Shown piece by piece: positions 829 through 24,593 of a DNA stretch of 32,145 nucleotides. The stretch is from Candidatus Kaiserbacteria bacterium RIFOXYD1_FULL_42_15 (GTDB lineage Bacteria > Patescibacteriota > Minisyncoccia > Phycocordibacterales > UBA918), in the NCBI GenBank assembly GCA_001783565.1, contig MFMT01000042.1, positions 29,408-61,552 on the forward strand. Reading direction: 5' to 3'. The stretch's first letter is position 1. Every line of letters begins with the position of its first letter. The notes below the pieces were generated by a model. The model was not told the origin of the DNA and did not search any database. It saw only the letters and a list, made by a program, of their open reading frames with translations. The position numbers were made by a program, and so were the translations under genes.

Positions 829-830
829 TC

Positions 831-5498: not shown

Positions 5499-5529
5499 AG
5501 AGTTGGTGTGACGTCACAGATTGCTTCCC

Positions 5530-8466: not shown

Positions 8467-8847
8467 ATGGAAATAAAACCCATTACTTTTGATAGACATG
8501 ACCGAGCGGCTTCTTTAATTAAAGAAATAGTAGCCACCTTCATTCAACAAGAGGCAAATCCCAATCCTCTTATTACCGTAACTCACGTTACTGTTTCTCC
8601 AGATTATCGAAAAGTGACAGTGTTTTTTACCACCATCCCTGACGGTCGCGAAGAAGATGCTTTAATTTTCCTCAAGCGCAGTGCTAATGAGATGCGCGGA
8701 TTTGTGAAGAAAAAAAGTAGTTTAAGAATTATTCCCCACTTGGAATTCTCAATAGACTACGGCGAACGACATCGCCAACACATCGATGAGATTGCCCACG
8801 AGATTGAGCACAGTGATGCCGACACCCCTACAGAACCAACCACCTAG
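8467..8847 (+). CDS. rbfA: Ribosome-binding factor A
   Basis: 'ITVTHVTVSPDYRKVTVFFT' and 'LRIIPHLEFSID'; directly after infB. Confidence 0.92.
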   Translation: MEIKPITFDRHDRAASLIKEIVATFIQQEANPNPLITVTHVTVSPDYRKVTVFFTTIPDGREEDALIFLKRSANEMRGFVKKKSSLRIIPHLEFSIDYGERHRQHIDEIAHEIEHSDADTPTEPTT

Positions 8848-8874
8848 GACATCCGATGTCCTAGGTGGTTGGTT
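8834..8874. repeat. Palindrome with 20-bp perfect arms overlapping the rbfA stop
   Basis: AACCAACCACCTAGGACATC-C-GATGTCCTAGGTGGTTGGTT. Confidence 0.9.
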
Positions 8875-8932
8875 GTACAGCTTGATATCTTTTGTCTATA
8901 GCGACCAAAAATGCTAAAGTAATACGCGACCA

Positions 8933-9005
8933 GTCCTGGTGGCGAAGTGGTTAACGCTACGGTTTGCAAAACCGTCATTCGTGGGTTCGACTCCCACCCA
9001 GGACT
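8933..9005 (+). tRNA. tRNA-Cys(GCA)
   Basis: Acceptor GTCCTGG/CCAGGAC, anticodon arm ACGGT-TTGCAAA-ACCGT, T arm GTGGG-TTCGACT-CCCAC, U discriminator. Confidence 0.96.
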
Positions 9006-9199
9006 CATTTATATAAAAACGTACATTCGTACGTTTTTATATAAATGAGTCCTGGGAGTTGTGTGCCTGCGCACACAACGTTGGGAATCGAACAGCGGAG
9101 TTATGTTTTCTCCTCTTCCCTAGAGGAGAAAACAGACGAGCTGCGTCCAGCGTTCTTATGAGCGTCAGCAAATTAGAAAAAGAGGGACGATTTCCACCA
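8997..9199 (+). repeat. tRNA-Cys 3'-end inverted copy, module and degenerate direct copy
   Basis: Perfect 28-bp inverted repeat 8997-9024/9029-9056; inverted T arm TGGGAATCGAA 9082-9092; degenerate direct copy CGATTTCCACCA 9188-9199. Confidence 0.85.
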
Positions 9200-9245
9200 T
9201 AAAACAGAATCAAATTTGAAGTAAATCTAGAAAGGAGTTCCCCTT

Positions 9246-9329
9246 GCCGGGATGGTGTAATCGGTAGCCACGCAAGACTTAAAATTTTGTGGGCGCAAGC
9301 CCGTGCGGGTTCAAGTCCCGCTCCCGGCA
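9246..9329 (+). tRNA. tRNA-Leu(TAA)
   Basis: Acceptor GCCGGGA/TCCCGGC, anticodon loop CTTAAAA, long variable arm, T arm GCGGG-TTCAAGT-CCCGC. Confidence 0.95.
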
Positions 9330-9675
9330 CAATGTAATAGTACGTCAGATTTTTATCTGGCGTACTATTACATTTGCCCCAGGGACTTGAAGAGGTTGCC
9401 TGCTAGATTATGAGCTAGCGAAATAATCTAGCGACAACCTGTACTGAACTCGTAGAGTTCAAGTCCCGCTCCCGGCACAAATTAAAAACTATCATTCTTG
9501 AGAGTTTTTAATTTGTGCCGGGAAGAAAGCAAACTGCTTTGCTTTCGGGCGGGACTTGAAAGGCGGAGCGACGTGAGTTTACGAACAAGCGAGCCAGGGT
9601 CGTGAGCGATATATTTTTAAGGAGTTCACGACTATAAAAATAATCGACTCCTGACCAAGTCCCGCTCCCGGCACA
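9330..9675 (+). repeat. Array of tRNA-Leu(TAA) 3'-end copies (2 inverted, 2 direct)
   Basis: Inverted 9376-9391 (degenerate) and 9514-9560; direct 9457-9479 and 9656-9675 (CAAGTCCCGCTCCCGGCACA). Confidence 0.92.
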
Positions 9676-9751
9676 AAGTATTATTAAGAATATATAGATA
9701 GGTTGTCTAATTTAAATTTATCTTGTACACTTTGCTCTACCAAATATATAT

Positions 9752-9824
9752 GCGCCCTTAGCTCAGTTGGTAGAGCAGCTCCCTCTTAAGGAGACGGTCC
9801 AAGGTTCGAATCCTTGAGGGCGCA
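9752..9824 (+). tRNA. tRNA-Lys(CTT)
   Basis: Acceptor GCGCCCT/AGGGCGC, D arm GCTC-AGTTGGTA-GAGC, anticodon loop CTCTTAA, T arm CAAGG-TTCGAAT-CCTTG. Confidence 0.95.
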
Positions 9825-10107
9825 CAAAGGTAAAGCAAAAACACTATCATAATATGATAGTGTTTTTGTTTTAAAAACTGAACTGCTTCAGTTTTGTGCC
9901 TGTGTGCGAGACGGAGCGATGTTTTTCTGCCCCCTTAGGCAGGAAAATAAGTGAGTCGGGGTAGCGAGTGCTTAGTAAAATAAAGACAAAGTATTTATTT
10001 TGGTTAGCAACTCGTGACCACACAGATACATCTATGTGCTATACATGACATGATTTTGTGACTAAATGATAATGTGTTACACTCTGTCCACACGATTTTG
10101 TGTATCC

Positions 10108-10189
10108 GCGCGAGTGGCGTAATTGGTAGCCGCGTTAGTCTTAGGAACTAATGGAGCAATCCGTGGAGGTTCAAGTCCTCTCTCGCGCA
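10108..10189 (+). tRNA. tRNA-Leu(TAG)
   Basis: Acceptor GCGCGAG/CTCGCGC, anticodon arm TTAGT-CTTAGGA-ACTAA, variable arm, T arm GGAGG-TTCAAGT-CCTCT. Confidence 0.95.
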
Positions 10190-10339
10190 CAAAAGAAAAA
10201 CCGTCCCGCAAGGGCGGTTTTTTGACTGCGCGAGAAGTAGTGTGTGGGACACACTACGGGAGGACTTGAAGAGGTTGCCAGCTCTTTTGAAAAAAGAGCG
10301 ACAACCTGTACTGAACTCGTAGAGTTCAAGTCCTCTCTC
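10190..10339 (+). repeat. Terminator-like hairpin, then tRNA-Leu(TAG) 3'-end inverted copy, module and direct copy
   Basis: Hairpin 10196-10223; inverted copy 10227-10270; direct copy GTTCAAGTCCTCTCTC 10324-10339. Confidence 0.9.
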
Positions 10340-10362
10340 CACATTTCCTATATAATAAACAA

Positions 10363-10785
10363 ATGGCTCAACAAAATACCCAATTTGATTTCGGTGATGG
10401 AAAGCAACCAACTTCCTCATTCACCCTCTATGAATACATCATTAGTGACCGCGGTAGCCGGTATTCAGCCAGTATTGGTTTTGTCACCGGGCGAGAAGAT
10501 ATAAAAAATTTTCTATCCAAACTAAAGACACTAAAAAAATACGCTAGAGCAGATCATCACAGCTGGGCAGCTCGTCTTTCACATGAGGGTACCATTTACG
10601 AAACCAAAAGTGACGATGGTGAGACTGGTGCCGGCATGGTCATACTCCGGATTATGCAAAAAAGGAACGTCACCAACTGCATCATCTCTGTCACTCGCTG
10701 GTTCGGTGGCATTAAATTAGAAGGAGACCGTTTCAAGCATATTCAAGACGCCACCATCTACGCCATTGACCACCTTGATCAATAG
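10363..10785 (+). CDS. YigZ/IMPACT (UPF0029) family protein
   Basis: 'DRGSRY', 'ADHHSWAAR', 'SDDGETGAG', 'VTRWFGGIKL..DRFKHI'. Confidence 0.88.
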   Translation: MAQQNTQFDFGDGKQPTSSFTLYEYIISDRGSRYSASIGFVTGREDIKNFLSKLKTLKKYARADHHSWAARLSHEGTIYETKSDDGETGAGMVILRIMQKRNVTNCIISVTRWFGGIKLEGDRFKHIQDATIYAIDHLDQ

Positions 10786-10817
10786 ATTTATATCGCGATT
10801 AATCGCGATATAAATCT
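10784..10817. repeat. Perfect 34-bp palindrome overlapping the YigZ-family stop codon
   Basis: AGATTTATATCGCGATT|AATCGCGATATAAATCT. Confidence 0.9.
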
Positions 10818-10849
10818 TGATTCGTTGTTGTCACTTTTTTACAACACCA

Positions 10850-11004
10850 CGTCTTTGCGAGTGAGAAAGTCCAGTGGACTTTCGCAAGACCTTGCCAGCT
10901 CTTTTGTAAAAAGAGCGACAAGGTGTACAGTCCCTGTTAAGGGAAAGCGCGGCAATCCACGTCCATCATCGTGTTCGTCTTCGCGAGTCGCAACGTGGCG
11001 ATCC
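10850..11004 (+). repeat. Two CGTC-type arms, the first carrying an inserted three-hairpin module
   Basis: CGTCTTTGCGAG-[10862-10942]-GAAAGCGCGGCAATCC, then CGTCTTCGCGAGTCGCAACGTGGCGATCC. Confidence 0.85.
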
Positions 11005-11088
11005 ACTTCTTCACCTAAACCACAGCCGAGCGAAATCATAAATTGCTAAAATACCCTACAAAATAAGCCCAGAATACCGTCCTAAAAC

Positions 11089-11117
11089 TTGACTTCTGTC
11101 GTGATTTGTGCTAATAT
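11089..11117 (+). promoter_or_regulatory. Sigma70-type promoter
   Basis: TTGACT, 17 bp, TAATAT with extended TG; overlapping TATAAT at 11115-11120. Confidence 0.6.
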
Positions 11118-11263
11118 AATAGATGGAATGGGCGGGTTGTACCCCACTTCTCCGTAGTCACACGAAAACGTGATGATTACCAGCAAGTTGGGCATCCCGC
11201 TCATAAATGAAACAGTCCGCGGGTGAGAAGCACATGCTTCCCCGCTTTGACATGGAGAGAAAA

Positions 11264-12424
11264 ATGAAACGTGTAATCATTCTGGTGTTGATTCTGGCAT
11301 CTTTCTATATCATCCCGAAGTTCTATATCATCCCGAAGGCAGTAGGGTTTGTGTTGGCATTCACCTTGGGACTCGCTGCTTCTGCAGCAATTCTTTTGGG
11401 TATCGGTGCGTATGCTTCGTTACTATTCAAGAACGTACTCACCCACAACCCAGACAAACCGCACTACTGGCAACTTTTCGTAAAGGTTGACAAAAACCGG
11501 GCAGTTGCCATCAGCCGCGGAGATAGAGAGATTAGGGTTTTGTTTGGAAACCAACCACCCCTACCCTCTGACGCCCTCTGGGGTTTTTGGATGAAGTACA
11601 AGAAGATGGTCATGGAAAAACTTGGTCTCCATGTGATTTTCCCGTACTTCTGGGAACCAAAAACTATCCCTCTTCCTAGGTACAAGATTGACGAGGTCGA
11701 CGGAAAGATAAACTACCGAACCATCAAGAATGGGGAGGAGGGATTCTTTACGAATCACGTTCGTGTCGCCGACGAGGGGACTCCCTGGTACTACATTATA
11801 TCCGGGGCAGACGTCCAGACTATACCAGTGACGACAAAGGAGGTCGTTACCTACCGCATCAAGAAAGACGAACTAAGCGTAATTACTTCGCTCTATGGTG
11901 CTGAAACCTGGAATGTCGTATTGAGCAACGCCATCGGGTCGATGACCAGAAAGGTCCTCAGTCGAGATGCCACGATCGACATGATCGTGGGGTCGATTGG
12001 AAACGAGGTGTGGCCCGTAACTGTCAAGACTTCTTCTTCACAGGATACTGTCTACAGTGCTTTGGCGCAGCAAATTGAGCTTGAGCTCCAGCGCTATAAG
12101 CTCAAGAATGGCAAGAAACTTGCAGACATGGGGATCGAAATCCTCAAAGTGGACATTCTTGACTTCGAGCCCGAACTTACACCAGAAGAAAAACTGAAGC
12201 TCCACTCTGCCGTCCTGGCCATCCAAAATGCCAGGAAGACTGTCATCGAAGGCACGGCTACTGCCAACGCCCAAAAGGCACTGAAAGATGTCCACGCCCT
12301 CGGTGGCGGCGCTTCACCAGAAATCATCATGGCCGATGTCATGAAGAAATTTGCTGACGGAAAGGGTGGGGTGCTTGATCTCATTCTCACCGGCCTCGCA
12401 GCAAACCAACTTAAGGGGAAATAA
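11264..12424 (+). CDS. Membrane protein with probable SPFH/band-7-like domain
   Basis: N-terminal TM helices; 'VTYRI', 'LADMGIEILKVDILDFE' and Ala-rich coiled coil as in SPFH proteins; GGAG SD before ATG 11264. Confidence 0.6.
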   Translation: MKRVIILVLILASFYIIPKFYIIPKAVGFVLAFTLGLAASAAILLGIGAYASLLFKNVLTHNPDKPHYWQLFVKVDKNRAVAISRGDREIRVLFGNQPPLPSDALWGFWMKYKKMVMEKLGLHVIFPYFWEPKTIPLPRYKIDEVDGKINYRTIKNGEEGFFTNHVRVADEGTPWYYIISGADVQTIPVTTKEVVTYRIKKDELSVITSLYGAETWNVVLSNAIGSMTRKVLSRDATIDMIVGSIGNEVWPVTVKTSSSQDTVYSALAQQIELELQRYKLKNGKKLADMGIEILKVDILDFEPELTPEEKLKLHSAVLAIQNARKTVIEGTATANAQKALKDVHALGGGASPEIIMADVMKKFADGKGGVLDLILTGLAANQLKGK

Positions 12425-12425
12425 G

Positions 12426-13226
12426 ATGATGTATCTGTATGCGGTGCTGGCAGGGTTTGCTTCCCTGCTGGTATTGACACCGTCTGTTCTTCTTCTCCTT
12501 TGGTTTTCTTACAAGGTAAAGTCCAAAAGAGCACCCACCCCAGTACCTGTTGGTGTGGCCGGGGCAAGTACGACCACAACCACAACAACACCCGTACCGG
12601 CCAGAAAGGTGTCGACGTGGGTGAAGGCGCTGCTGGCGACAGTGCTGATGATTATATTGTTCTTTTGGGGCGGAGAAATTCTTTCCGCCCTGAAGGGCTG
12701 GGATTGGTCAACCACCAGCACTGGCAAATTCATCGAAGACAACGCCGGCTCCGGCTGGTCAAATCTTCTGTGGCTCTTTCTACTGGTGCCGCTCTACTTT
12801 CTTGTCGGACTTCCCAAAGGTCTGGCGAAGAATGCGGGGACGGTACTGAGCTGGGGAGTGGCCATCATTGGGATGATTGGACTGGTATGGTTCTTCACCC
12901 AAGACCCGCTACGGTGGTGGCATAACGACAATATTGTCAGGGTTGACCTCAACAGGGTCAATTCAGACACTGTGTCGATAAAACCCGACCAGACACTGAT
13001 TATTCTGGTTCGGCAAGCCACAGTCTACGGACGTGACTGCACCGGATACTTCATGCCGGCGCCGAAGTGGCGGGAGATGTATGACATGCATCAACCTGAA
13101 GATGTTCTTATATCATACACCAACCAGGGCCTGACGACCTATGTGTCCATTAAGGAACCCTACCGCACCATGCTACGCGATAGGGGGATGACTATGGACA
13201 TCTGGGTCTACAACCAAGGTTGCTAG
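12426..13226 (+). CDS. Hypothetical multi-pass membrane protein with Thr/Pro-rich linker
   Basis: About 4 hydrophobic segments, poly-Thr run, AGGGG SD overlapping the end of the upstream gene; start moved to ATG 12426. Confidence 0.7.
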   Translation: MMYLYAVLAGFASLLVLTPSVLLLLWFSYKVKSKRAPTPVPVGVAGASTTTTTTTPVPARKVSTWVKALLATVLMIILFFWGGEILSALKGWDWSTTSTGKFIEDNAGSGWSNLLWLFLLVPLYFLVGLPKGLAKNAGTVLSWGVAIIGMIGLVWFFTQDPLRWWHNDNIVRVDLNRVNSDTVSIKPDQTLIILVRQATVYGRDCTGYFMPAPKWREMYDMHQPEDVLISYTNQGLTTYVSIKEPYRTMLRDRGMTMDIWVYNQGC

Positions 13227-13259
13227 TCCCTTCGGTGGCCCGACACAGGACCACCAACA

Positions 13260-13298
13260 CCCCCGGCGGCGCGCAAGCGTTCGGCGGGGGTTTATTTT
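13260..13298 (+). terminator. Intrinsic terminator
   Basis: GC-rich imperfect stem with GCAA loop followed by TTTATTTTT. Confidence 0.7.
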
Positions 13299-13383
13299 TA
13301 TAAAATATGATTCAGAATTTAGCCAGGTTTAACCAAATTAAGGAGATTGCCATAAAGTTTATCACGGGATTAATAATCTCTTT

Positions 13384-13782
13384 CTACTGTGGTCCAGATA
13401 CAGGTGTGGTATATGTTGGGGCGGTAGCCGGAAGTTCAAAAACTCGGTTATTACAACCAGAAGCTGTTGGGTCTTTAGCACAATCTAGGGTGTCCTTCAA
13501 ACCAAAGGTGTTAGCGGCCACGGATAAAATGGCAAAAGCAGTTAGCATCACCAGTAAGCCGATAATGCCCCACATAATATGTTTTTGACCATCGGCACGC
13601 CCAGTCGGATCATTTGAATTAGCAATGTATTGAAAACTGCCGTACATAAAAACTAGTACCGCTACCGCCGTCAGAAGGATGATTAAGGGATAAAGAATAA
13701 CTTCATTGAATTTGGCGACAAAGCTGGTAGCTTCGGTAACACCTGGTACTGACTCAACGGCATAAGCAATATTTGAAAACAT
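13384..13782 (-). CDS. Small membrane 'pilin' (TrbC/VirB2-like CPR family)
   Basis: Two TM helices around 'GSFQYIANSNDPTGRADGQKHIMWGIIGL'. Confidence 0.75.
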   Translation of the reverse strand: MFSNIAYAVESVPGVTEATSFVAKFNEVILYPLIILLTAVAVLVFMYGSFQYIANSNDPTGRADGQKHIMWGIIGLLVMLTAFAILSVAANTFGLKDTLDCAKDPTASGCNNRVFELPATAPTYTTPVSGPQ

Positions 13783-13873
13783 ATGGCTAAATTATAGCAT
13801 CACAACAATCAAAAAACCGCACTGAAGGTGCGGGTTTTTGTCGGTAAAGTATTACCACTATCATCTAAGCAAA

Positions 13874-14257
13874 TTATGGAGTAGGTAAACCGGGTATAGT
13901 TGGTACAGTCGTTTGATCACCACCGATTGAGCCGGTAAGAAAGTTAACGATTCCCCATAAACTAAAAATCAATGCAAAACCGATAATCGAATAGATAATT
14001 AAGTTTCTACCTTCTTTTCTTTTCTCAGGGTCGTCACCGCCAACAATAAACATTTTGAAAATACCCCAAACAAACATCAGAAATCCTGCTGCCAGTAGTA
14101 GGGGCAATAAATAGTTTTTAATGAAAGTAGTGGTTCCAGAAAATGGAGCACCTAACAAGGTAGGATTATTTTCCAAAAGCCCAGCTGCACTAACGGTGGA
14201 TGCACCTGCAATCAATAAAAACATGGCTGAAAAAATAAAGAAATAGACGTTTTTCAT
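13874..14257 (-). CDS. Small membrane 'pilin' (TrbC/VirB2-like CPR family)
   Basis: Signal peptide plus 'WGIFKMFIVGGDDPEKRKEGRNLIIYSIIG'. Confidence 0.8.
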   Translation of the reverse strand: MKNVYFFIFSAMFLLIAGASTVSAAGLLENNPTLLGAPFSGTTTFIKNYLLPLLLAAGFLMFVWGIFKMFIVGGDDPEKRKEGRNLIIYSIIGFALIFSLWGIVNFLTGSIGGDQTTVPTIPGLPTP

Positions 14258-14383
14258 AAAATTAAATTGTTAATACTATTAATGAGTATTAATGGTAATT
14301 ATACATGATAATTTGGGGATTGTATGCTTTCTGGGGTGGGGTGTGTATAAAAAAGCTGGTTACAGAAATGAGTCCTGTGAAGA

Positions 14384-14638
14384 CGTGGATTGCTTCGCGC
14401 GACTCGCAAAGACGTTTCACTTTGTGTTCGTCTTCGCGAGGAGTGGAGTGGCAACGTGAAAAAGTGATTCAATATCACTTTGCAAGACTAGTTGAGCAGG
14501 TTTGTGAGTGAAACGAAACAAACTGGCCAACTAGTGGACAGTCCCTGTAAGGGAATGACGTGGCGATCCAGGGTGGCATGACGAACGATGTGGATTGCCA
14601 CGTTGCGACTCGCCTGTCTGCGCAGGCAGACAAAGACG
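14384..14638 (+). repeat. Composite CGTC-type element with a 96-bp inserted module
   Basis: Colinear and near-identical to 17268-17427 except for extra 14457-14552. Confidence 0.9.
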
Positions 14639-14657
14639 GAGGGGTTGAGACGGTGGG

Positions 14658-14924
14658 TTAAAAAATTGATGCCTTAAGAAAAGAAAGGATGCCCCAAATG
14701 CTGGCCATGATTACCATCACGATGACTGAAGTCAGTGCTATCATCTTACCCTCTTCGCGCTTGGTATCATTATCGGCATGGATAATCCAGGCATCAATAA
14801 TTTTCCACATCATCACAATGAAGGCCAGGGCAAAGATAACCACTATCAGGGAGTTGATGATGTCAACGAAAAAGACGACAAGCTCGGCGAAGGTGGTGGG
14901 CGTGACTGGTGTGGTTGGTGTCAT
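14658..14924 (-). CDS. Small membrane 'pilin'-like protein
   Basis: Two TM helices around 'HADNDTKREEGKMIAL'. Confidence 0.7.
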   Translation of the reverse strand: MTPTTPVTPTTFAELVVFFVDIINSLIVVIFALAFIVMMWKIIDAWIIHADNDTKREEGKMIALTSVIVMVIMASIWGILSFLKASIF

Positions 14925-14926
14925 AA

Positions 14927-15316
14927 CTAGAAACTTTCAACAGTTGATTGAATAATGTCACTAATGGCAACGGCGGCCAAAATCAAAACCCCACCAATAA
15001 TGGCATAAGTGAGGGCACGAGTCGCCTCCCCGACTTTGGTAGAATTACCACGAGCGGTGACGTATTTGAAACCAGCTAAAATAATAAAGAAGACGACGAC
15101 GGGTATCATCAGAATTTCCACGATATTGAGAATGGTCACCAAAAGACCTTCGATAGAACTGACATTTTTAAGAGGGTTTTCTAGGGTAACGGTGTCAATT
15201 TTACTTGTATTCGTCGGAGCAGCTTTGGTAAAAATTGGTAAAAGAAAAAGTAAACCAAGGATTAAATACAAACCGGCATTTTTTCTTATTTTCATTACTT
15301 GACAGTATTTTTTCAT
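14927..15316 (-). CDS. Small membrane 'pilin' (TrbC/VirB2-like CPR family)
   Basis: Signal peptide, 'LENPL', 'AGFKYVTARGNSTKVGEATRALTYAIIG'. Confidence 0.8.
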   Translation of the reverse strand: MKKYCQVMKIRKNAGLYLILGLLFLLPIFTKAAPTNTSKIDTVTLENPLKNVSSIEGLLVTILNIVEILMIPVVVFFIILAGFKYVTARGNSTKVGEATRALTYAIIGGVLILAAVAISDIIQSTVESF

Positions 15317-15324
15317 ATAAAGTA

Positions 15325-16626
15325 TTAATACACTTCCCTCAACCTCCCCACCGCATCATTAGCGGCTTCCCCGGGGCGGTGGCGGTTGGCGAGGACGTCC
15401 TCGACCATTTGGGTAAAGATGTCATTGGTAATGGTCGGCTTGGGACTGAGCCAACCACGCGCCACCGTGGCCGAACTGTAGATAATTCTACCATATTGGT
15501 CGTTACTACCGGTTGAGAGTGAAGAGCGATAAGTTGGTGCCATCTGCAAAGCATTAGCCAATGCCTCCACATTGGCCACACTGCCTAATTCCTGCATGAC
15601 AATCTGCGCGCCAGCACTATTACGAGATGATCGGAGAAGAGCATAGCCATAAAAGGTGCCGTAGGTTCGTCTGATGGTGGCTATAGCTCCCTGTGGTACC
15701 TCGGCCATGGCAAAATTAAGATTGGGATTTTGGGTTGCCAAACTGCTGGCTTCACTTCCTTTGCCAAAATACAGAACCAAGTCCTCACTCAAAAACTGCA
15801 GGCGGTCATTCGGCTGGGCTCGATTCCAACTATAAAGAGGGTTGCTCGGACTAGCAAAATTAGTATAGAAGGTCACGGCCGATTCAAAGGGTTGACCTGC
15901 CCCACTTCTAGATTGATTGAGATAAAGTTTGTAAGTGTCATTTTCCTCCATCACCAGCTTACTACCGCCTTGTAACAACAACATGGAAATGATCCCAAAA
16001 CCGTTGGTGACGTTGCGGTATTCACCAAAGGCCAGAGGACTGCGGATAATAGTTTTGTCAAAGTCGCGCTTAACTAAGGTCGGTACCGTTTCGTTTACCA
16101 CTGTTTCCCAAGTAGCAGGCGGAGTAATAAAATTGTAGGTGCTAAGAATATCACGATTCCAATACATCACCAGCGGATCAACTACGGCTGGAAAAGCATA
16201 GACGCCATCATTCATGGCAAAAATCTCTGTCCCATCAATGTAGCGGTTCTGAAAATCCGGTAACGGAAATTGGGTGTAGGAAAACGGCTGTATTTTTGTC
16301 CGATACTGAACTAATTGTTCATGTGATAAAAATAAAATGTCTGGACCAATTCCGTCAGCCAAGGCATTGAGTAATTCATCATCGAAGGTGCTGGGATCTT
16401 TTTGTTCATAACTAACCACACTATAAGCGGGAGTGGCTTCAACTAATGGGCGCAACATTTGCTGAAAAGCGTTTTTATCAACGGTGCCCCAAATAGTAAC
16501 TGAACTTCCCAGTGAGACAGCGGTGGTGTCGGGATTTGGTTTGTAGGTTGATAAAAGAGCCAAAGCAATCAAGCCCAAAGCACCAAAAATGGCAATCAAA
16601 GCTAATTCAAAAGGACGTAATTTCAT
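15325..16626 (-). CDS. Membrane-anchored extracellular solute-binding protein (sugar-type family)
   Basis: N-terminal TM, 'VTIWG', 'ALADGIGPDI', 'YAFPAVVDPLVMYWNRDIL', 'PPATWE'. Confidence 0.85.
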   Translation of the reverse strand: MKLRPFELALIAIFGALGLIALALLSTYKPNPDTTAVSLGSSVTIWGTVDKNAFQQMLRPLVEATPAYSVVSYEQKDPSTFDDELLNALADGIGPDILFLSHEQLVQYRTKIQPFSYTQFPLPDFQNRYIDGTEIFAMNDGVYAFPAVVDPLVMYWNRDILSTYNFITPPATWETVVNETVPTLVKRDFDKTIIRSPLAFGEYRNVTNGFGIISMLLLQGGSKLVMEENDTYKLYLNQSRSGAGQPFESAVTFYTNFASPSNPLYSWNRAQPNDRLQFLSEDLVLYFGKGSEASSLATQNPNLNFAMAEVPQGAIATIRRTYGTFYGYALLRSSRNSAGAQIVMQELGSVANVEALANALQMAPTYRSSLSTGSNDQYGRIIYSSATVARGWLSPKPTITNDIFTQMVEDVLANRHRPGEAANDAVGRLREVY

Positions 16627-17171
16627 AATTTTCTAAAAGCTAAACCATAATGATGGTCTCCAGCTGGGTACTCACGCTCCAACATAAAACCATGTGATTC
16701 AAATAAAGCAATAGCGGCGAGTTTGGTAATCACACTGGCCGGAGCGGGGCCAAGACCAGCAAAAGATTCAGTCCAATCAATGACATGTAATACTCCTCCC
16801 TGACGCAAAGTGCGACCCATTTCAATCACAGCCGTGTCTTTATCTTCAAGCTGAAATAAGGTGTTAACTAAAATACCAGCATCCAACGAGTCATCGGCGA
16901 TTTTGATTCCACCGGCCACTTCAAGATCACACCATAAGGGATTAACATTTTGAAAGCCCTTTGAGCGGGCAAAGTTACCAAGTTTTTCTACCAATGGTCG
17001 CTGAATTTCACAAGCGAAAACTTTACCGGTCTGACCGACTGCTGAGGATAGGATAGGAATGAAGAAACCGCCACCGGCGCCAAAGTCTGCCACCTTATCA
17101 CCCTCTTCCAGTAAAAAATGTGTGCCGACCACTTCCGGCATCACAAACCGTCCCAAGGTTGGTAAATTCAT
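16623..17171 (-). CDS. Class I SAM-dependent methyltransferase
   Basis: 'VADFGAGGG' motif I, 'LRQGGVLHVIDW', 'HHYG'; start placed at ATG 17171 behind TATACT. Confidence 0.85.
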   Translation of the reverse strand: MNLPTLGRFVMPEVVGTHFLLEEGDKVADFGAGGGFFIPILSSAVGQTGKVFACEIQRPLVEKLGNFARSKGFQNVNPLWCDLEVAGGIKIADDSLDAGILVNTLFQLEDKDTAVIEMGRTLRQGGVLHVIDWTESFAGLGPAPASVITKLAAIALFESHGFMLEREYPAGDHHYGLAFRKL

Positions 17172-17267
17172 TATCAATAGTATACCGCAAGGAAGTTAAA
17201 AAAAGTGTCGGTGGGGTGTAGAGAACCTGTTTATCCTTAAGACAAACGGTTACGTAACGGACGCAAA

Positions 17268-17427
17268 CGTGGATTGCTTCGTTGCGACTCGCAAAGACGT
17301 TTCACTTTGTGTTCGTCTTCGCGAGGAGCGGAGTGGCAACGGAGTGACGTGGCGATCCAGGGTGGCATGACGAACGATTTGGATTGCCACGTTGCGACTC
17401 GCCTGTCTGCGCAGGCAGGCAAAGACG
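17268..17427 (+). repeat. Composite CGTC-type element (empty form)
   Basis: Three arms; near-identical to 14384-14638 without the insert. Confidence 0.9.
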
Positions 17428-17468
17428 AAACTTTTCCATCTTCAATCTTCTCTATTTTTGTTTTCTCT

Positions 17469-19940
17469 CTAGACAAACACGATACTGGCAATAGAGTCGC
17501 CGGCTCGCATCTTCATTACTCGCACACCCTGTGTCTGACGGCCAAGAGTCGGCACGTCCTTGAGAGGTAATTTAATCACCTGCCCTTTCTTGCTCATAAT
17601 TACCAATTCTCCTTCTGTTCTATCCTCGCCACCAATCACTACTCCGCCGACAATCAGGCCGGTCTTGTCAGTGACTTTGGCAGTTTTGATACCAGAGCCA
17701 CCACGTTTTTGCACTTTGTACTCCTTTACTGGAGTGGTCTTACCATAACCATGTTCGGTCACAATCAAGATTTCAAAATCCTTAGAATCTTTTTTAATAA
17801 CATCAGCCGAGACTATTAAATCTCCCTTACCGAGTTTCATGGCGGCCACACCGGCAGCGGTGCGTCCCATTTCTCGGACATCGCTTTCTTTAAATCGTAT
17901 CGCTTGACCCTTGTGTGTAACTAAGGAAACCTCATCCCCTTTACCAACAAATTTGGCGGCTATCAAAGCATCGTCTTCGCGCAAGGTAATAGCAATCAGT
18001 CCGCTACGACGCACATCTTTGAAGGCAGAAGCATCAGACTTTTTGGCTACCCCATTTTTGGTAACCATCATCAAGCTCCACTGCCCTTCCCAAGCTTCTT
18101 TGCGAACCGCCAGGACTGAAGTCACCCGTTCTTCGGCTGACATTGAAAGGAAGTTCATGATCGACTTGCCTTTGGTGGCGCGACGACCCTCTGGTATCTC
18201 GTACATCTTGCTCTGATAGACCTTACCATTATCGGTAAAGAATAGAAGGTCACTGTGAGCCGAAGTAGTAAGCAGTGTCGTCACCACGTCTTCTTCCTTG
18301 GTATTCAAGTCAATTACGCCCACTCCGCCACGCTTTTGGGTTTTGTATTCTTCGGGGTTAGTACGCTTGACGTAACCGCCAGCAGTGAGCACTAAGACGC
18401 TTTCGTCGTCCGGTATCAAGTCTTCTTGACTCATCATTTTGACACCACCCTTGACGATTTTGGTACGACGGTCATCGCCATATTTTTCAGCAATCTCCAT
18501 CAATTCGCTTTTGACCAAGGCCAGCATCTTTGCCTTACTCTTTAGAATTGCTTCCAGTTCCTTGATAAGTTTTTGAACCTCAGTCAGTTCATCTTCTATT
18601 TTCTTACGCTCGAGTCCAGCCAACTTTTGCAGACGCATGTCGAGAATGGCCTGGGCCTGAATACTGGAGAACTTGAATTCTTTCATCAAAGCAGCGTGGG
18701 CTGTCGGTACATCTTTGGCAGCTCGAATAAGCTTGATGATTTGGTCGATATGATCAAGGGCTTTTTTCAGGCCAAGTAAAATATGCTCGCGATCCTGGGC
18801 TTTGGTGAGGTCGTACTGAGTACGACGACGGACGACGTTGGACCGATGCTTCACATATTCTTCTAAGATAACCTTGAGTGACACTGTCTGCGGTACGCCG
18901 TCAACCAAAGCCACCATGTTGTAGTGGAAGGTGTCCTCCAGTTGAGTATGTTTGTATAATTTATTTAAAACGGTTTGTGGTTGGGCACCAGTTTTGAGAT
19001 CAATCACTACCCGAATGTCATTGGTAGACTCGTCACGCATTTCACGAATACCCTCAATCTTTTTGTCGCGCACCAAATCAGCAATCTTTTCCTGCATGTC
19101 GGCCTTGTTCACCCGAAATGGAATCGAAGTAATAATGATAGAGAAAGCCCCTTTTTTGTCCTCAACAATCTCAGCTTCACCACGCACTACCACCCCACCA
19201 CGACCATAGGTATAGGCATGGGTAATATCTTTTTGATTAAAGGCCACCGCACCAAGTGGAAAGTCTGGACCTTTAACAAATTTCAACAAGTCCTCTGTAG
19301 TGGCTCCTGGATTATCAATCAAATATTCAATCGCCACTGATAATTCGCGCAAATTGTGGGGTGGAATATTGGTTGCCATTCCCACTGCAATACCCAATGT
19401 ACCCATGAGGAGTAAATTTGGTACTGCTGCTGGTAAAACCACTGGCTCTTTTTTGGTACCATCAAAGTTGGGGCGCCAATCAACTGTGTCCTTTTCCAAA
19501 TCACGGAGCATTTCTTCTGCTAAGCGCGACATCTTGGCCTCAGTGTATCGATAGGCAGCCGCCGAGTCACCGTCAATTGAACCGAAGTTTCCTTGACCAA
19601 GAACAAGTGGGTAACGGGTAGCAAATGGCTGAGCCAACTTTACCATTGATTCGTACACTGCCGAGTCACCATGAGGATGAAAGCTACCAAGCACATCTCC
19701 CACTACCGTCGCTGATTTTTTGAACTTTGCACTCGCTGTTAAACCATTAAGACGCATCGAGTAGAGGATGCGACGGTGTACTGGCTTCAGCCCATCGCGA
19801 ATATCCGGCAAGGCACGCGAAGTAATGACCGACATCGCGTAGTCAAGGTAGGAAGTTTCCATTTCACCCGTGATACTTTGGGTGATAATTCCTCGTTGTG
19901 GAGCTGGAGTGGTATCATCTGGAATGGTCTTTTTCGGCAT
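17469..19940 (-). CDS. gyrA: DNA gyrase subunit A
   Basis: [21 protein letters not shown], 'AAAYRYTE' active-site region, GyrA box QKRGG; probable ATG at 19940. Confidence 0.96.
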
Positions 19941-20047
19941 AACAGAAAACAAGAAATTTAATAATAATCTTCATATTATAGCATACTTGAGCTATGGTAC
20001 AGTGGTTTTTAAGAGTCCAACCACCAACCCTCTTACAAATCATAAAG

Positions 20048-20341
20048 TTTCAAATTTTGAGCGAAAAAGAATTAGATAGTTTGAGGAAGCATATAGATAT
20101 ATATTGATGAAAAATAACTAATTTGTAGCCAAATATTTGGAATCTTTTGGTGGCATACGGGGTTATTGGATGGGTTCTAAATAATACCATCCCCAATTAA
20201 CGCTTGGACATAAACGCCTTTCAAAATTTTGAGCGAAAAGCAAGCTGGAGTCCGAAGCATATTGGTATATGTTGAGGGCGAAGCGCGGTTTTGTAGCCAA
20301 AATTTGGGATTGCGTGTCCAATGGTTAATTGGAGATGGTAT
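20048..20341 (+). repeat. Two degenerate copies of a structured motif, the second enclosed by an inverted copy of the neighbouring gene's 3' end
   Basis: TTTCAAA(A)TTTTGAGCGAAAA...GAAGCATAT...TTTGTAGCCAAA at 20048-20142 and 20219-20310; 20184-20210 pairs with 20315-20341. Confidence 0.7.
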
Positions 20342-20798
20342 AAGGTAATCGCGATTCACTATTCACGGTTTCTCGTGGCTTAGTGGTCGTGCCAATCTGA
20401 ATGGTTTTAGTGGTGGTAGATTTGGCATTCATATTCGTTGAAGAACTAATCCTAATTTCAATCGGTGATTGATTCTGTTCTTCCCCTGATGATTTGGAGA
20501 CAGTAGTTGAGGTGGCAACGGAAGCAGAGAGGGTAGTGCTGGCAGATTGCCACACATTGGCCACAGATTTTTTTGCGCCCTCAAATTGGTTTTTTATTTG
20601 AGTTAAAAAACCAGAAAATGGAGCCGCCCCGACCGCTTCACTCTCCACCCCGCCAGAGATGTTTGAAAAACTTGCTGGTAAAGATACCAACCAAACCACT
20701 ACCAAAATAGCGGTAAAAACAAAAGCACTGCCAAAAGCATATCGCTCACGCACATGTTTTGGTTTTGTTCTTATTTTGTCTAGGGTTTCGAAGAACAT
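20325..20798 (-). CDS. Hypothetical single-pass membrane protein
   Basis: 'LDKIRTKPKHVRERYAF' then a TM helix and a Ser/Thr-rich tail. Confidence 0.7.
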   Translation of the reverse strand: MFFETLDKIRTKPKHVRERYAFGSAFVFTAILVVVWLVSLPASFSNISGGVESEAVGAAPFSGFLTQIKNQFEGAKKSVANVWQSASTTLSASVATSTTVSKSSGEEQNQSPIEIRISSSTNMNAKSTTTKTIQIGTTTKPRETVNSESRLPYTISN

Positions 20799-20827
20799 AT
20801 TTTAATAAGCAACCCTGCGGGTAGTAG

Positions 20828-21448
20828 CTAGACGGAGAGGACAACGACATCACCCTCCATAACAACTACATCACGTTTCTTGATTGTCAGTTTATCGACT
20901 GGTTTAACGGTCTCTGCCCCCACCTCTTTCAAAAAGGTATTCAATGATGTTTTATCATAGTGCATCGGCAAAATAAGTCTTGCCTCCAACTTGGTTGCCA
21001 GCTTGGCAGCGGCTGGTACATCCAAAACATCTCCGCCACCAATCGGTACAAATAATATATCAATATCGCCTAACTCACCAAGAATTTTTGGGTCAATTTC
21101 CGCATCGCCAAGAGCCCCTAAAAACACTAAATTCATTTCTTCCAGACGTACCTGATAAATAGTATTGAAGTGCTCCACATTTTCATAAGTGGTTTTTACA
21201 CCAAAACCACGGACCGTCACTTCACCAATTTCATATTCGCCAGGACCCGACACTACAAATGGTTGCTTGTTGCCAAGGGCTACTTGGCTAGAACCGTTGA
21301 AGTTTGGATGGTTAAGTGAAATAAAGGCCACATCTGAACCAAACTTTACTGATGTTAATTTAGATTCCTTCGCAATCGGATCAAAAGCCAGAGTGGTGTT
21401 ACCAAACGATACCTTAAAACATTGCCCACCGTGATATGTAATAACCAT
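20828..21448 (-). CDS. Metallo-beta-lactamase-fold protein (degenerate metal site)
   Basis: 'ITYHGGQCFKV', 'GPGEYEIG', 'DIDILFVPIGG', 'LPMHY'; start placed at ATG 21448. Confidence 0.85.
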   Translation of the reverse strand: MVITYHGGQCFKVSFGNTTLAFDPIAKESKLTSVKFGSDVAFISLNHPNFNGSSQVALGNKQPFVVSGPGEYEIGEVTVRGFGVKTTYENVEHFNTIYQVRLEEMNLVFLGALGDAEIDPKILGELGDIDILFVPIGGGDVLDVPAAAKLATKLEARLILPMHYDKTSLNTFLKEVGAETVKPVDKLTIKKRDVVVMEGDVVVLSV

Positions 21449-21561
21449 AATGACAGTAGTATACAAGAAGAGAGCGGAAATAGAAAATAGAATATGGAAA
21501 ATAGTTGAATAGTTTAATAGTTACAGTTGCATGGTTGTATGGTTGCAATTAATGCAACGTT

Positions 21562-21710
21562 GTCTTCGCGAGGAGCGAGCGCACGAGTGACGTGGCGATC
21601 CAGGGTGGCGACGATGACGAACGGTGTGGATTGCCGCGCTGTGGCTCGCCTGTCTGCCATGCCTGCCCTGCATACGCAGGCATGGCATGCAGGGCAGGCA
21701 GGCAAAGACG
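21562..21710 (+). repeat. CGTC-type element with expanded internal palindrome
   Basis: GTCTTCGCGAG...GACGTGGCGATCC and GGATTGCC...CTCG-[54 nt]-CAAAGACG. Confidence 0.85.
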
Positions 21711-21742
21711 TGACTTTCCCATATTCAATATTCTATTTTCCC

Positions 21743-21771
21743 TTGCCATTTTTCATTTTCTTTGTTATATT
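21743..21771 (+). promoter_or_regulatory. rpsA promoter
   Basis: TTGCCA, 17 bp, TATATT with extended TG. Confidence 0.55.
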
Positions 21772-21920
21772 TTTCCCACTTCGTAAGAAGATTATTAGTT
21801 TCTAGCGACACACGTTTAACCCCGCACTCACGGACAATGGCCGGTAGAAAAATTCAAAGAATTTTTCTACCTCGCGAAATGGTTGTGCGGACGCGTGTCG
21901 TCGGAAGTAAACATATATAT

Positions 21921-23039
21921 ATGTCAGATGTAACTACTCCAGTCGCTGATTCGACTGAAGCTAAAGGAGGTGTGATGCAGTTGTTGGCTGCCAACCTGCC
22001 GGACGCGCCAAAAGAAGGACAATTAATCGAGGGGACTGTTTCGGCTATTGGCCGAGCCCGACTGTATGTAGACCTACCACCATTTGGTACTGGTTTGATT
22101 TTTGGTCGTGAATATATGAACGCGCGCGATATTCTGCGTAAAGTTAGTGTTGGTGATACTATCGCCGCCAAAATTGTCGATACCGCCAACGAAGATGGTT
22201 ATATTGAATTATCTCTCAAGGAGGCTCGCCAAGCATTGATTTGGGCTGACGCTGACGAAGCGGTCAAACGAGGGACTGTTATGAGTTTGGAAGTTAAAGA
22301 GGCCAACAAAGGCGGTTTGATTATTGAGTGGCAGGGTATTCAAGGATTCCTTCCAGCTTCACAACTCGGATCTGACAATTATCCTCGAGTTGATAATGGC
22401 GACAAGGACAAAATCCTACACGCTCTTAATTCACTAGTAGGTAAACACCTCAGTGTGGTTATGATTACTGCTGATCAGAAGGAACATAAACTTATCTTCT
22501 CAGAAAAAGGACCCCAAGAAAAAGAAGAAAAAGAAGAAAAAGTTGGTAGGTATGAAGTTGGGGAGATTCTAAATGGTGAAGTAACCGGGGCTGTTGATTT
22601 CGGTATCTTTGTTAAGATTGAACAAGGACTGGAAGGACTGGTTCACATTTCTGAACTTGATTGGGGACTGGTAGAAGACACTCGCACCCTGTATAAAGTC
22701 GGAGATAAGGTTAAGGTTAAAGTCATTGAGGTAAAAGATGATAAGATTTCTCTATCCATCAAACAACTTCGTGATAACCCTTGGACTGAAGCTGCTAAAA
22801 AATATGCCAAGGATCAAGTAGTGCCTGGTGTTGTGATTAAATACAACAAGCACGGTGCTTTGGCCTCTATCCAAGAAGGAGTGGCTGGTTTAGTTCATAT
22901 TTCCGAATTTGAAACCGAACAAAATTTGAAAGCAAAACTTTCACTTGGTAATGTCTACCAATTCAAAATCACTCTTTTTGAACCGACTGAACAACGCATG
23001 ACATTATCATACAAGGAAGCAAATCAAGAAATAAAATAA
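21921..23039 (+). CDS. rpsA: 30S ribosomal protein S1 (four S1 domains)
   Basis: 'NKGGLII...GFLPASQL', 'FGIFVKI..GLEGLVHISEL', 'ISLSIKQL..NPW'; start ATG 21921. Confidence 0.9.
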   Translation: MSDVTTPVADSTEAKGGVMQLLAANLPDAPKEGQLIEGTVSAIGRARLYVDLPPFGTGLIFGREYMNARDILRKVSVGDTIAAKIVDTANEDGYIELSLKEARQALIWADADEAVKRGTVMSLEVKEANKGGLIIEWQGIQGFLPASQLGSDNYPRVDNGDKDKILHALNSLVGKHLSVVMITADQKEHKLIFSEKGPQEKEEKEEKVGRYEVGEILNGEVTGAVDFGIFVKIEQGLEGLVHISELDWGLVEDTRTLYKVGDKVKVKVIEVKDDKISLSIKQLRDNPWTEAAKKYAKDQVVPGVVIKYNKHGALASIQEGVAGLVHISEFETEQNLKAKLSLGNVYQFKITLFEPTEQRMTLSYKEANQEIK

Positions 23040-23050
23040 CAGTAAATAAA

Positions 23051-23085
23051 CAAAAAGACACGGGATCATGCTCGTGTCTTTTTTG
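23051..23085. terminator. Bidirectional terminator between rpsA and pth
   Basis: AAAAAGACACGGG-ATCATG-CTCGTGTCTTTTTT. Confidence 0.75.
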
Positions 23086-23164
23086 TTATCAATCTGCGAG
23101 GTCAGACCCCACAGATTGGGTGATGTTGTGGCGAAAGGTAAAAAACTTAAGGGTAGGGCTTTTT

Positions 23165-23761
23165 TTAATTAAACTTATTCATCGCTACTGTATGGCCTTC
23201 TGTTACAATCATAGCGATGGCGGCACAGGCAGACTCTTTTGCTTCCTTAAGGGCATTCTGCTCACGCTTCCCAAAACCACCCAAGACAAACCTCTCTAGT
23301 ATGCCGCCTCCACCCGGCCTCTTTATAGTTCCTTGTTGCCATGGCCAGAAGCCACTCTTACCAATACCAATTCGTACTCGCACAAAGTCCTTGGTATTGA
23401 GCTTATCAATAATCGAGGCAATGCCGTTATGTCCCCCACTTCCTCGGCCGAATGACACCCTTACTTGTCCCAGTGGTAAATCAACATCGTCATGAAGAAC
23501 GACTAGATGATCTGTTTCGACACTTGGCACCAATTTTTTCACCGCCCTACCAGAATTATTCATGAAAGTATCAGGATATAGCACCATGACGTCTTGTTGC
23601 TCCAATTGACCCGCACTCACTTTCCCACTATACTGGGCGGATAAAACCGCTGGAGGCAATCCTGCCCCTGAGACTAAAATATCAAGCACCATCCACCCGA
23701 TATTATGTCGGGTGTTCTGATATTTTTCTCCCGGGTTTCCTAGACCCACGATGTAATACAT
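23165..23761 (-). CDS. pth: Peptidyl-tRNA hydrolase
   Basis: IVGLGNPG..Y..TRHNIG, FMNNSG, HDDVD, GGHNG, RVRIGIG. Confidence 0.96.
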   Translation of the reverse strand: MYYIVGLGNPGEKYQNTRHNIGWMVLDILVSGAGLPPAVLSAQYSGKVSAGQLEQQDVMVLYPDTFMNNSGRAVKKLVPSVETDHLVVLHDDVDLPLGQVRVSFGRGSGGHNGIASIIDKLNTKDFVRVRIGIGKSGFWPWQQGTIKRPGGGGILERFVLGGFGKREQNALKEAKESACAAIAMIVTEGHTVAMNKFN

Positions 23762-24582: not shown

Positions 24583-24593
24583 TTAAAATCAGT

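Follow-up and report, generated by a model that had tools for sequence, protein, structure and literature searches.

The DNA analyzed here (the window below) is a stretch of 32,145 nt from contig MFMT01000042.1 (assembly GCA_001783565.1) of Candidatus Kaiserbacteria bacterium RIFOXYD1_FULL_42_15, a small groundwater bacterium whose genome comprises 757 kb in 43 contigs and is 84% complete. Coordinates are window positions; C-numbers denote contigs of this genome and G-numbers the genomes of relatives. At 14457-14552 the window contains a 96-nt sequence that we take, with a probability of about 0.72, to be one member of a lineage-specific family whose small mobile modules are non-coding and non-autonomous, pair with their landing sites in the manner of a guide, and are mobile now or were so recently. 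The modules have exact ends, stand after a G without target duplication, carry a terminal hairpin that is completed by flanking bases (in six target contexts), prefer hairpin apices, reuse one junction and have one folded strand. They form an order-wide family of nested three-hairpin modules with guide-like landing-site pairing, and this is new among small non-autonomous bacterial repeats.

Ends, landing sites and fold of the module

The insertion at 14457-14552 was delimited by comparing two copies of a GC-rich repeat as follows: Pairwise alignment of 14384-14640 with 17269-17429 gives a single 96-nt gap between otherwise near-identical sequences (2 substitutions and 1 indel in ~72 columns of the left flank, and 4 substitutions in ~89 columns of the right flank). 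With junctions marked by a caret, the filled site reads GGCAACG^TGAAAA...GTAAGG^GAATGACG and the empty site GGCAACG^GAGTGACG, and the target is not duplicated. In the MAFFT alignment the gap lies one base farther left (CAAC^GTGAA...TAAG^GGAGT), a true 1-nt ambiguity that exists because G stands on both sides. The original prediction of a 96-bp difference between a filled and an empty site, and of a discrete module of ~80-100 nt that enters after G without duplicating its target, is borne out by these measurements, and the ends are exact rather than ragged. The interrupted repeat, called R below, has the form CGTCNTNGCGAG-centre-GCRATCCA. The parts of the focal module (hairpins hp1 and hp4, long helix P2 and its capping hairpin P3) and the sites compared are these:

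14457-14552, + strand: focal module, of the class with P2 ACTAGTTG/CAACTAGT
14457-14462: 5' TGAAAA
14461-14468/14474-14481: hp1
14482-14486: GCAAG
14487-14494/14528-14535: P2
14496-14526: P3
14536-14541: GGACAG
14542-14554: hp4, whose final two bases (GA, 14553-14554) belong to the flank
14430-14570, + strand: host repeat R interrupted by the module after GGCAACG (CGTCTTCGCGAG, 26-nt centre, GCGATCCA); resembles repetitive extragenic palindromes (REPs) with a CGTC tag
17315-17359, + strand: uninterrupted host repeat copy, empty site 17341^17342 (GGCAACG^GAGTGACG)
10862-10942, + strand: module in the apex of an R unit after TTGCGAG; P2 ACCTTG/CAAGGT, GTACAG, hp4 TCCCT-GTTA-AGG^GA
5471-5499, + strand: R unit with a 9-nt centre and without module; approximate empty site, junction 5482^5483

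The last two entries had been proposed as a second filled and empty pair. They do belong to the same host-repeat family, entered after TTGCGAG, but the first flank base is C in all listed empty 9-nt centres and G in the filled copies of the 10862 class, so that 5471-5499 is not an exact empty site. The composite of R and a 10862-type module recurs on at least six contigs with 95-99% identity over 111 nt including the flanks.

The grammar of the family is TGAGAA (or TGAAAA or TGAGGA)-hp1-(T)YGCAAG-P2(P3)P2'-GNACAG-hp4, about 80-100 nt in all, where P2 is a long helix, P3 is variable in sequence, hp4 is short with a GTA(N) loop, and hp1 is closed at its base by pairing of TG, the element's first two bases, with the CA of GCAAG. 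A strict pattern search of the whole genome (NAAG-P2-...-reverse complement of P2-GNACNG, with perfect P2 complementarity demanded) found 48 true copies and 1 false one, and an nhmmer profile built from the strict-pattern copies gave 90 matches at the cut-off of E<1e-3 (best 5.6e-23). A structure-aware parser returned 60 rows, of which 7 were dropped by eye as false (coding sequence, no GTA loop, or in one case a misset loop), leaving 53 copies.

Minimum-energy folding gives the three hairpins on both strands, at z-scores of -5.5 to -7.8 relative to shuffled sequences. A covariance model made from 35 copies guided the alignment of 55 copies at 47 loci in other genomes; standard pairs fill 98.8% of the 924 cells, 16 of the 17 pairs have compensatory double changes (0 of 500 shuffles match this), and pairing falls to 32-51% when partners are slid by 1-3 columns. 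The alignment was fitted to the covariance model, which favours structure, but the margin is nonetheless large, and the predicted grammar with fully covarying middle stems is upheld both by the 48 strict-pattern copies and by the covariation in other genomes. Covariation is seen in the three outer pairs of hp1, in P2 and in P3. For hp4, which lies outside the structure tested, the 55 copies have 25 different 5' arms whose complementary 3' arms are kept, and 53 have the GTA loop. About 18 bases in the junctions and one loop are invariant or nearly so, while all helices covary. The model pairs of the same 55 copies include 25 G.T against 3 A.C, and since each G.T pair becomes an A.C mismatch in the complementary strand, this excess makes the TGAGAA strand the folded, selected strand, be it RNA or single-stranded DNA.

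Where does the element end and the target begin? Of 42 recognizable module starts, 40 follow G; the two others are one start after the AGA end of an upstream module and one false start in a tRNA-linked frame (below). At the other end, comparison of filled and empty sites puts the junction three bases past the GTA loop (four in one class). The element supplies the 5' arm of hp4, the loop and three bases of the 3' arm, and the first two bases of the target (three at tRNA T loops) close the stem. Both outer hp4 pairs are Watson-Crick in 47 of the 53 parsed copies, the six exceptions being two with G.T, two broken by a later copy at AGG^AA, one with another small insert and one parser loop error. 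Sub-classes of the hp4 5' arm match different flank bases (GA, AA, AG, TG, TC and TTC), and a single body (P2 ACTCATTG) bears four different hp4 arms, each matched to its own flank. The completion of the terminal hairpin by target bases, predicted from a few sites, thus extends to these six contexts:

P2 ACTAGTTG class in the 26-nt host-repeat centre: junction AGG^GA; the window pair, with the same P2 on C38 and C28
hp4 TTCCT-GTA-AGG class in CGCACG^AAGCAATCC or a related 10-nt centre: junction AGG^AA; four filled and eight empty sites
Nested in the hp1 loop of another module (GGG^AGACA): junction AGA^AG
Directly 5' of the TGAGAA of another module: junction AGA^TG
In core B elements of tRNA frames (GGGG^TCG): junction GAAT^TC
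At tRNA T loops: junctions ATG^TTC, GAG^TTC, AGA^TTC and GAC^TTC

The preferred targets are hairpin apices, namely the centres of CGTC-tagged REP-like units, the hp1 loops of other modules, the junction of an earlier copy and tRNA position G53^T54. Among the 26-nt R centres listed, 43 are uninterrupted and eight interrupted. The TGAAAAAGTGA start follows GCAA(C/G)CG^ in such centres on C13, C28, C36 (twice), C38, C42 outside the window and C43, counted here as seven further contigs beyond the window pair. The filled sites of the TTCCT class are on C23 and C11 (CGCACG^) and, in the related centres TCGCAACG^ and TCGCCACG^, on C8 and C5, and its empty sites are eight units with centre CGCACGAA. 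In the nested class, one module splits the hp1 loop of another (GAAATGTCTGGG^...^AGACATTTC), and C5 holds the loop intact. The window has an array in which several of these contexts are combined:

26103-26585, + strand: four-module array in one R unit
26103-26293, + strand: first module; its hp1 loop holds a 70-nt AT-rich insert (26120-26190) and its P3 a GC-rich one
26294-26490, + strand: second module
26308-26388, + strand: third module, nested in the hp1 loop of the second (GGG^...^AGACA)
26491-26585, + strand: fourth module

The first and second modules each end ...TCCCTGTTAAGG^ immediately 5' of the next TGAGAA, and the GA flank is kept only by the last module. A possible guide at the left end, in which GCAAGA would pair with the host-repeat arm GTCTTTGCGA, was dropped, as GCAAG is equally conserved beside unrelated left flanks (for example in G103).

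The covariance model finds the family in 96 of 101 genus genomes (between 1 and at least 41 matches per genome), in 77 of 151 genomes of an order sample, and in 1 of 150 genomes of a phylum draw (one of the 150 belongs to the order, and the source genome was excluded). Public records listed for the module pattern include titles with Kaiserbacteria, Nomurabacteria, Zambryskibacteria and Paceibacteria; a few of the labels among these listed matches seem to come from mis-binning or automatic naming. Several of the copies inspected in low-copy complete genomes, including the sole copy of G054, are tRNA-linked and others lie elsewhere; two inspected copies stand just upstream of tRNA-Met, in corresponding places in G103 and G108. 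The family is thus large and non-coding, with nested insertions across a bacterial order. We found no prior description of it in the literature on repeats of Patescibacteria and Parcubacteria, on tRNA insertions or on nested hairpin insertions, a search that covered mostly journals open without subscription.

Patescibacteria genomes are thought to be streamlined, yet the module family makes up ~1% of this 757-kb genome (a rough value from the 90 profile matches), and it and the host repeats together shape the majority of intergenic regions and roughly half of the tRNA loci. Such repeats break short-read assemblies of these organisms, and a model of the family helps annotation and binning. Nature also provides, in the hp4 arms, "guide" variants that correspond to different target bases; if they do act as guides, base-pair-directed insertion would be testable in a system far smaller than IS608 or the bridge-RNA elements.

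tRNA-linked frames

A script that screened 37 tRNA genes found a downstream duplicate of the tRNA 3' end in 17 cases and an inverted copy starting within 50 nt in 18. The order of parts in these frames is the tRNA 3' end from T54, a hairpin, the inverted acceptor 3' strand plus trailer, hp1, the inverted T-stem 3' strand plus T loop, (A/G)AG, a core, and then the next copy of the tRNA 3' end. Two kinds of core occur. Core A consists of P2/P3, GTACYG and an hp4 whose stem ends in the T-loop TTC; core B, which takes the position of core A in the frame and itself hosts modules, has no relation to the three-hairpin module. In the window the frames are as follows:

172-828, + strand: three tRNA-Tyr frames, with core A at 261-333 and core B at ~421-510 and 615-806 (the latter with a nested module)
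331-352, 510-531 and 807-828: tRNA-Tyr 3'-end copies
661-752, + strand: module nested in core B of the third tRNA-Tyr frame, hp4 GAATTC-GTA-GAAT^TC
9331-9676, + strand: two frames after tRNA-Leu(taa), with core A at 9389-9459 (hp4 GAACTC-GTA-GAG^TTC) and then a core B unit
9460-9480 and 9656-9676: tRNA-Leu(taa) 3'-end copies
10191-10340, + strand: one frame after tRNA-Leu(tag); core A, with P2 AGGTTG, at 10268-10330
31953-32098, + strand: one frame after tRNA-Ser(cga), with core A, P2 CCCGATTG/CAATTGGG, one pair being G.T

Every frame has a core, and its inverted copy is separated from the next direct copy by 54-67, 92-102 or ~180 nt in all cases. The cores are near-identical across different tRNAs (96% over 53 nt between tRNA-Tyr and tRNA-Ser(cga)), while the direct copy, inverted copy and hairpin of each frame are specific to its own tRNA. 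Five species have at most a plain terminator at the tRNA-Tyr locus, with no inverted copy of the tRNA end (G013 has a possible decayed remnant), and eight have 1-3 units there; one species has core A at tRNA-Tyr in a frame whose hairpin and hp1 are orthologous to those of a core-B frame here. On these sequence comparisons the core behaves as the exchangeable part of the tRNA frames.

The frames resemble integrative elements of tRNA genes in that the 3' end is duplicated from the T loop on, the tRNA remains intact, G53^T54 is used and similar cores stand at different tRNAs. They differ from them in being only ~150-190 nt long, in having no integrase and in each carrying an inverted tRNA-end copy and a hairpin. 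Archaeal tRNA-intron transposition also resembles the tRNA-linked frames; to our knowledge bacteria do not possess the archaeal splicing endonuclease.

Some further features of these loci were noted. Palindromic frames follow most of the tRNA genes in the window (172-830, 9007-9680, 9826-10020, 10191-10340 and 31953-32110). Core B (~421-510, 9540-9655 and 9900-10010) comprises a hairpin rich in GC, ...GAGTCGGGG TCGAGCGA... and a second hairpin rich in AT, and it ends ...GTGAC before the tRNA 3'-end copy. The 3' CCA is mostly not encoded in the tRNA genes of this genome (for example at 87-171), and is encoded at tRNA-Tyr in G003 and G034.

Mode of movement and its alternatives

How might such a module move? 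We suggest that the match between hp4 and the flank reflects target choice, or at least retention, by a two-to-three-base guide in the folded TGAGAA strand, and that repeated landing at one junction would build the tandem and nested arrays. The strand-transfer enzyme would act in trans and would most likely be an HUH-type enzyme that nicks and joins single strands; RAYT-like (REP-associated tyrosine transposase) and IS200-type candidates are present, and none is tied to the module. Many copies would be secondary, because host repeats that carry the module multiply as composites.

The closest known parallel is with the IS200/IS605 family, whose non-autonomous derivatives are called PATEs. The module shares with the model element IS608 a single-strand logic, subterminal hairpins at both ends, the lack of target duplication, one active strand and a guide that acts by base pairing (PMC3201880; PMC5934647). 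Its subterminal hairpins hp1 and hp4 are both present in the minimum-energy folds, and the excess of G.T over A.C pairs (above) marks one strand. Guide-based target choice, and its reprogramming by changes in the guide, are established for IS608 (PMC3201880), and there the guide lies 5' of the hairpin foot and reads the 5' flank. The geometry of the module is different. IS608 reads a tetranucleotide on the 5' side and has its junction 10-19 nt from the terminal hairpin, whereas the module has one fixed 5' base (G) and two or three paired 3' bases, with its junction inside the hp4 stem. Nor is a conserved tetra- or pentanucleotide seen 5' of the module: apart from the G at -1 (40 of 42), the preceding bases are variable. 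No copy of the module has tnpA or tnpB inside it.

The genome was searched for enzymes that might move the module. It has one IS200/IS605 transposase (130.7 bits) and four RAYT-like proteins (29-63 bits, under the curated cut-off of 80), and no TnpB was found in it. Each RAYT-like gene is flanked by its own, differing palindromes, and the IS200 copy has unrelated ends. Two IS110-type genes lie at contig ends (C12 12796-13712 and C4 1-1100) with no module beside them, there is one Phage_integrase-family gene, and RVT_1 was not found in this 84%-complete genome.

Several observations weigh against the view that the module is a guide-paired element moved by such an enzyme. None of these candidate genes, the IS200 copy and the four RAYT-like genes included, has modules or the host repeat at its flanks. 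In the order sample, Y1 (HUH) matches were found in 50 of 77 genomes that have modules and in 41 of 74 that lack them, a cross-tabulation made by hand on the same genome draw in which relatives are not independent and metagenome-assembled genomes often lose repeated genes; and four genomes with 11-15 modules (G143, G150, G128 and G223) have no Y1 match. These distributions weaken the HUH link without excluding it, and the proposed connection to HUH chemistry, with weak co-occurrence, no flanking association and a geometry unlike that of IS608 (pairing is with the flank 3' of the folded strand, and the junction is inside a hairpin stem), stays at the level of a suggestion. The match between hp4 and the flank could have arisen after insertion by compensatory change, and in the 10862 class G takes the place of the C present in all listed empty 9-nt centres. 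The numbers of copies exceed those of independent insertion events, as repeat-plus-module composites have themselves multiplied. The target-specific inverted copy beside every tRNA core is not explained by module insertion alone, and its origin is a separate problem posed by the frames. Finally, active movement, filled and empty alleles and circle junctions are not observable in the public data, since the contigs break at repeats: there are 21 public runs with this region, all of DNA and kept as contigs, and in the four that were compared across 8800-27000 the contigs end at repeats (in run X1 they cover 10935-14428 and 14600-17295) and none spans 14457-14552. The joints listed from these contigs are cross-repeat chimeras and give no evidence either way on filled/empty polymorphism or a circle junction.

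Other small repeats and elements share some of these properties. The host repeat R is like REP/BIME sequences and their RAYTs in its CGTC tag and short palindrome, its high repetition and its inverted pairs, and the genome has four RAYT-like genes. The module differs from REP/RAYT (REPIN) sequences in being a three-helix unit with conserved junctions instead of a simple palindrome, and the RAYT-like genes are flanked by four other palindromes. The hairpin elements of organelles (yeast mitochondrial GC clusters, double-hairpin elements and repetitive hairpin-forming elements) are tiny, structured, non-coding, nested and GC-rich against an AT-richer background, and their mobility was inferred from filled and empty sites (PMC4478555; PMC2800124). 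They have other hosts and no sequence relation to the module. We know of no guide-like flank pairing or tRNA T-loop targeting described for them. A miniature inverted-repeat element of a DDE transposon was rejected because TGAGAA... at one end and ...GTAAGG at the other do not form inverted repeats and the target is not duplicated. An IS110 or bridge-RNA element was rejected as well: the two IS110-type genes have no adjacent modules, and 4 of 41 relatives have a member of the IS110 family, the high-copy genomes G001, G018 and G024 not among them.

A bolder form of the explanation, which we consider possible but on balance doubtful, is that these are miniature elements of a new kind, programmable through a two-to-three-base guide in the terminal hairpin, which seek hairpin apices in single-stranded nucleic acid, G53^T54 of tRNA T loops included, and which build or ride the palindromic tRNA frames with their direct and inverted copies of the tRNA 3' end. 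Since the module is not tracked by any known transposase family, their movement would need an enzyme not yet recognized as a transposase, or else catalysis by the folded strand. If the enzyme is no known transposase, this would be a new route of DNA mobility.

Could the modules instead be functional structured RNAs, either small ribozymes or protein-binding RNAs, with TGAGAA, GCAAG, GNACAG and GTA as their core, whose copies multiply with the host repeats? The ~18 near-invariant junction and loop bases amid covarying helices and the strand-specific G.T excess favour this, as do the presence of the family in nearly all genomes of the genus and the corresponding tRNA-Met positions in G103 and G108, which could mean that some copies are conserved functional RNAs or DNA structures. 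The tRNA-linked units would moreover be co-transcribed with their tRNAs, and have a closing helix like that of the acceptor and T arms. We nevertheless judge it unlikely as an account of the family. At gathering thresholds Rfam 15 matched only 6 tRNAs and no module in the genome, and at E up to 10 nothing overlaps modules except spurious microRNA matches on long hairpins; comparison by eye with consensus sequences gave no match to hammerhead or other small-ribozyme cores, in agreement with Rfam. The orientation of modules is random with respect to neighbouring genes (13 same/same and 12 opposite/opposite), the copy number runs from 1 to at least 41 across species of one genus, and modules have interrupted the conserved hairpins of other modules, left broken hp4 stems and made exact junctions in unrelated contexts. 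Two further searches were negative: local GC skew against module strand gave counts of 27/25/22/16, with no signal of replication-strand bias, and a search of the genome for split modules with cargo (P2 halves 130-6000 nt apart) gave one match, a tandem artefact.

Movement through RNA, in which an intron-like transcript pairs with its target, is reverse-spliced or reverse-transcribed and is then fixed as DNA, seems to us improbable. The element does pair with its 3' flank, and hp1 sets its 5' end at the base of a helix; the exon-binding sites of self-splicing introns of groups I and II pair with flanks in a similar way. Group-II-like reverse transcriptases are present in 6 of 24 genus genomes sampled, including the high-copy genomes G001, G018 and G024. 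RVT_1 is absent from the source genome, though, and was found in 10 of 41 relatives only; none is present in G007, G016 and G022, which have 33, 31 and 29 copies, respectively. The relatives' enzymes score 132-134 bits against a group II maturase cut-off of 300, and they may belong to a diversity-generating retroelement or a defence system. At 80-100 nt the modules are far below the size of any known self-splicing intron, and no Rfam intron model matches them. A group II intron or other retroelement as such was rejected. The reverse transcriptases are 351-383 aa long, for example at G018:C6 1417-3042, where a 131-aa open reading frame lies directly upstream, and at G001:C18 2031-3086.

Slightly less probable still is a tyrosine recombinase acting on folded single strands, in the style of integron attC sites or of XerCD and CTX phage, that would cut the 3' arm of the terminal hairpin. 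The formal likeness to arrays of integron cassettes is close: these too are inserted after a G, without duplication, from a folded single-stranded DNA substrate, with a 3' hairpin closed by the start of the downstream unit, and they grow as tandem arrays. The genome does have its one Phage_integrase-family gene, which would most simply be a housekeeping Xer-type recombinase. In the modules the flank after G is GA, AA, AG, TG, TC or TTC according to class, without a constant core such as TTRRRY, and there is no cassette open reading frame or integron integrase context, although no search specific to IntI was made. Furthermore, the 5' arm of hp4 matches the target and not the module's own first bases TG, so a circular form would carry a mismatched site.

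That the short forms are deletions from long ancestors, or that repeats recombined without any insertion activity, is very improbable: abutting modules do share the TGAGAAAG start, which gives ~9 nt of junction ambiguity compatible with unequal recombination, and repeat-plus-module composites are themselves repeated, but insertion is favoured because one and the same body, with exact ends, stands between unrelated flanks in at least six contexts, otherwise conserved hairpins are split by insertion, and uninterrupted host units far outnumber interrupted ones (43 to eight for the 26-nt centres).

Host repeats, small inserts and neighbouring genes

The host repeat R has 178 left arms in the genome. 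Its basic form is CGTC-T followed by the palindrome TTGCGA-G-TCGCAA, and inverted pairs are frequent. The centres are 8, 9, 10 or 26 nt long and of few recurrent types, and orientation often alternates, so that neighbouring arms can pair. Judged by eye from its sequence, R would fit the CGTC-tagged REP super-family, for which no dedicated transposase is known (PMC3733652). An interpretation of R as TIGR guide arrays (PMC12045711), suggested by its two conserved blocks alternating with short centres, was rejected in view of the few recurrent centre types, the dispersal in both orientations and the lack of a cluster with a Nop-domain gene. R units in the window are at:

5471-5499: R unit (9-nt centre, above)
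10976-11006: R unit
14384-14456 and 14553-14638: R units on either side of the focal module
17269-17427: R units including the uninterrupted copy
21550-21700: R units
25896-26102: R units
30299-30465: R units

The 26-nt centre of R resembles a 10-nt mini-hairpin between 6-nt direct repeats (GAGKGA). A small hairpin CCTGTCTGCGCAGGCAGG (with a T.G pair) lies between CTCGC and AAAGACG of inverted R units at 14613-14630, 17402-17419, 21642-21700 and 30355-30372, and longer, nested versions of it are present at 21642-21700. The perfect palindrome AACCAACCACCTAGGACATC/GATGTCCTAGGTGGTTGGTT at 8834-8874 matches the flanks of a RAYT-like gene (C7 5398-7061); this is an ordinary REP/RAYT pair and a separate family.

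Modules and tRNA frames themselves host other small inserts. The 70-nt AT-rich insert (GTTGTGTAAAATAATRAGCGTAGCGAYTATATTTTTCATACATAGAATTTTTTATCCYTAATAAAAATTCTT) found in the window at 26120-26190 also occurs in hp1 loops of modules and of tRNA frames on C5, C13, C26, C28, C36, C41 and C43, and contains its own hairpin and, by eye, promoter-like hexamers. A ~85-nt insert (TTAACATACAGATTTCACTCACTCGGTCATAAAAATAAAACTACAC...) occupies the GTA loop of hp4 in some modules (C36, C41 and C43), with GTA apparently repeated on both sides, and GC-rich inserts occur in P3 loops of modules.

The intergenic region that carries the focal module adjoins a type IV secretion system pilin gene on the minus strand (13874-14257; PF18895, 54 bits). 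The remaining genes of the window are housekeeping genes, namely those for ClpB, IF-2, GyrA, S1, Pth, signal peptidase, a HisRS-like protein, YbeY, FtsA, FtsZ and thioredoxin reductase.

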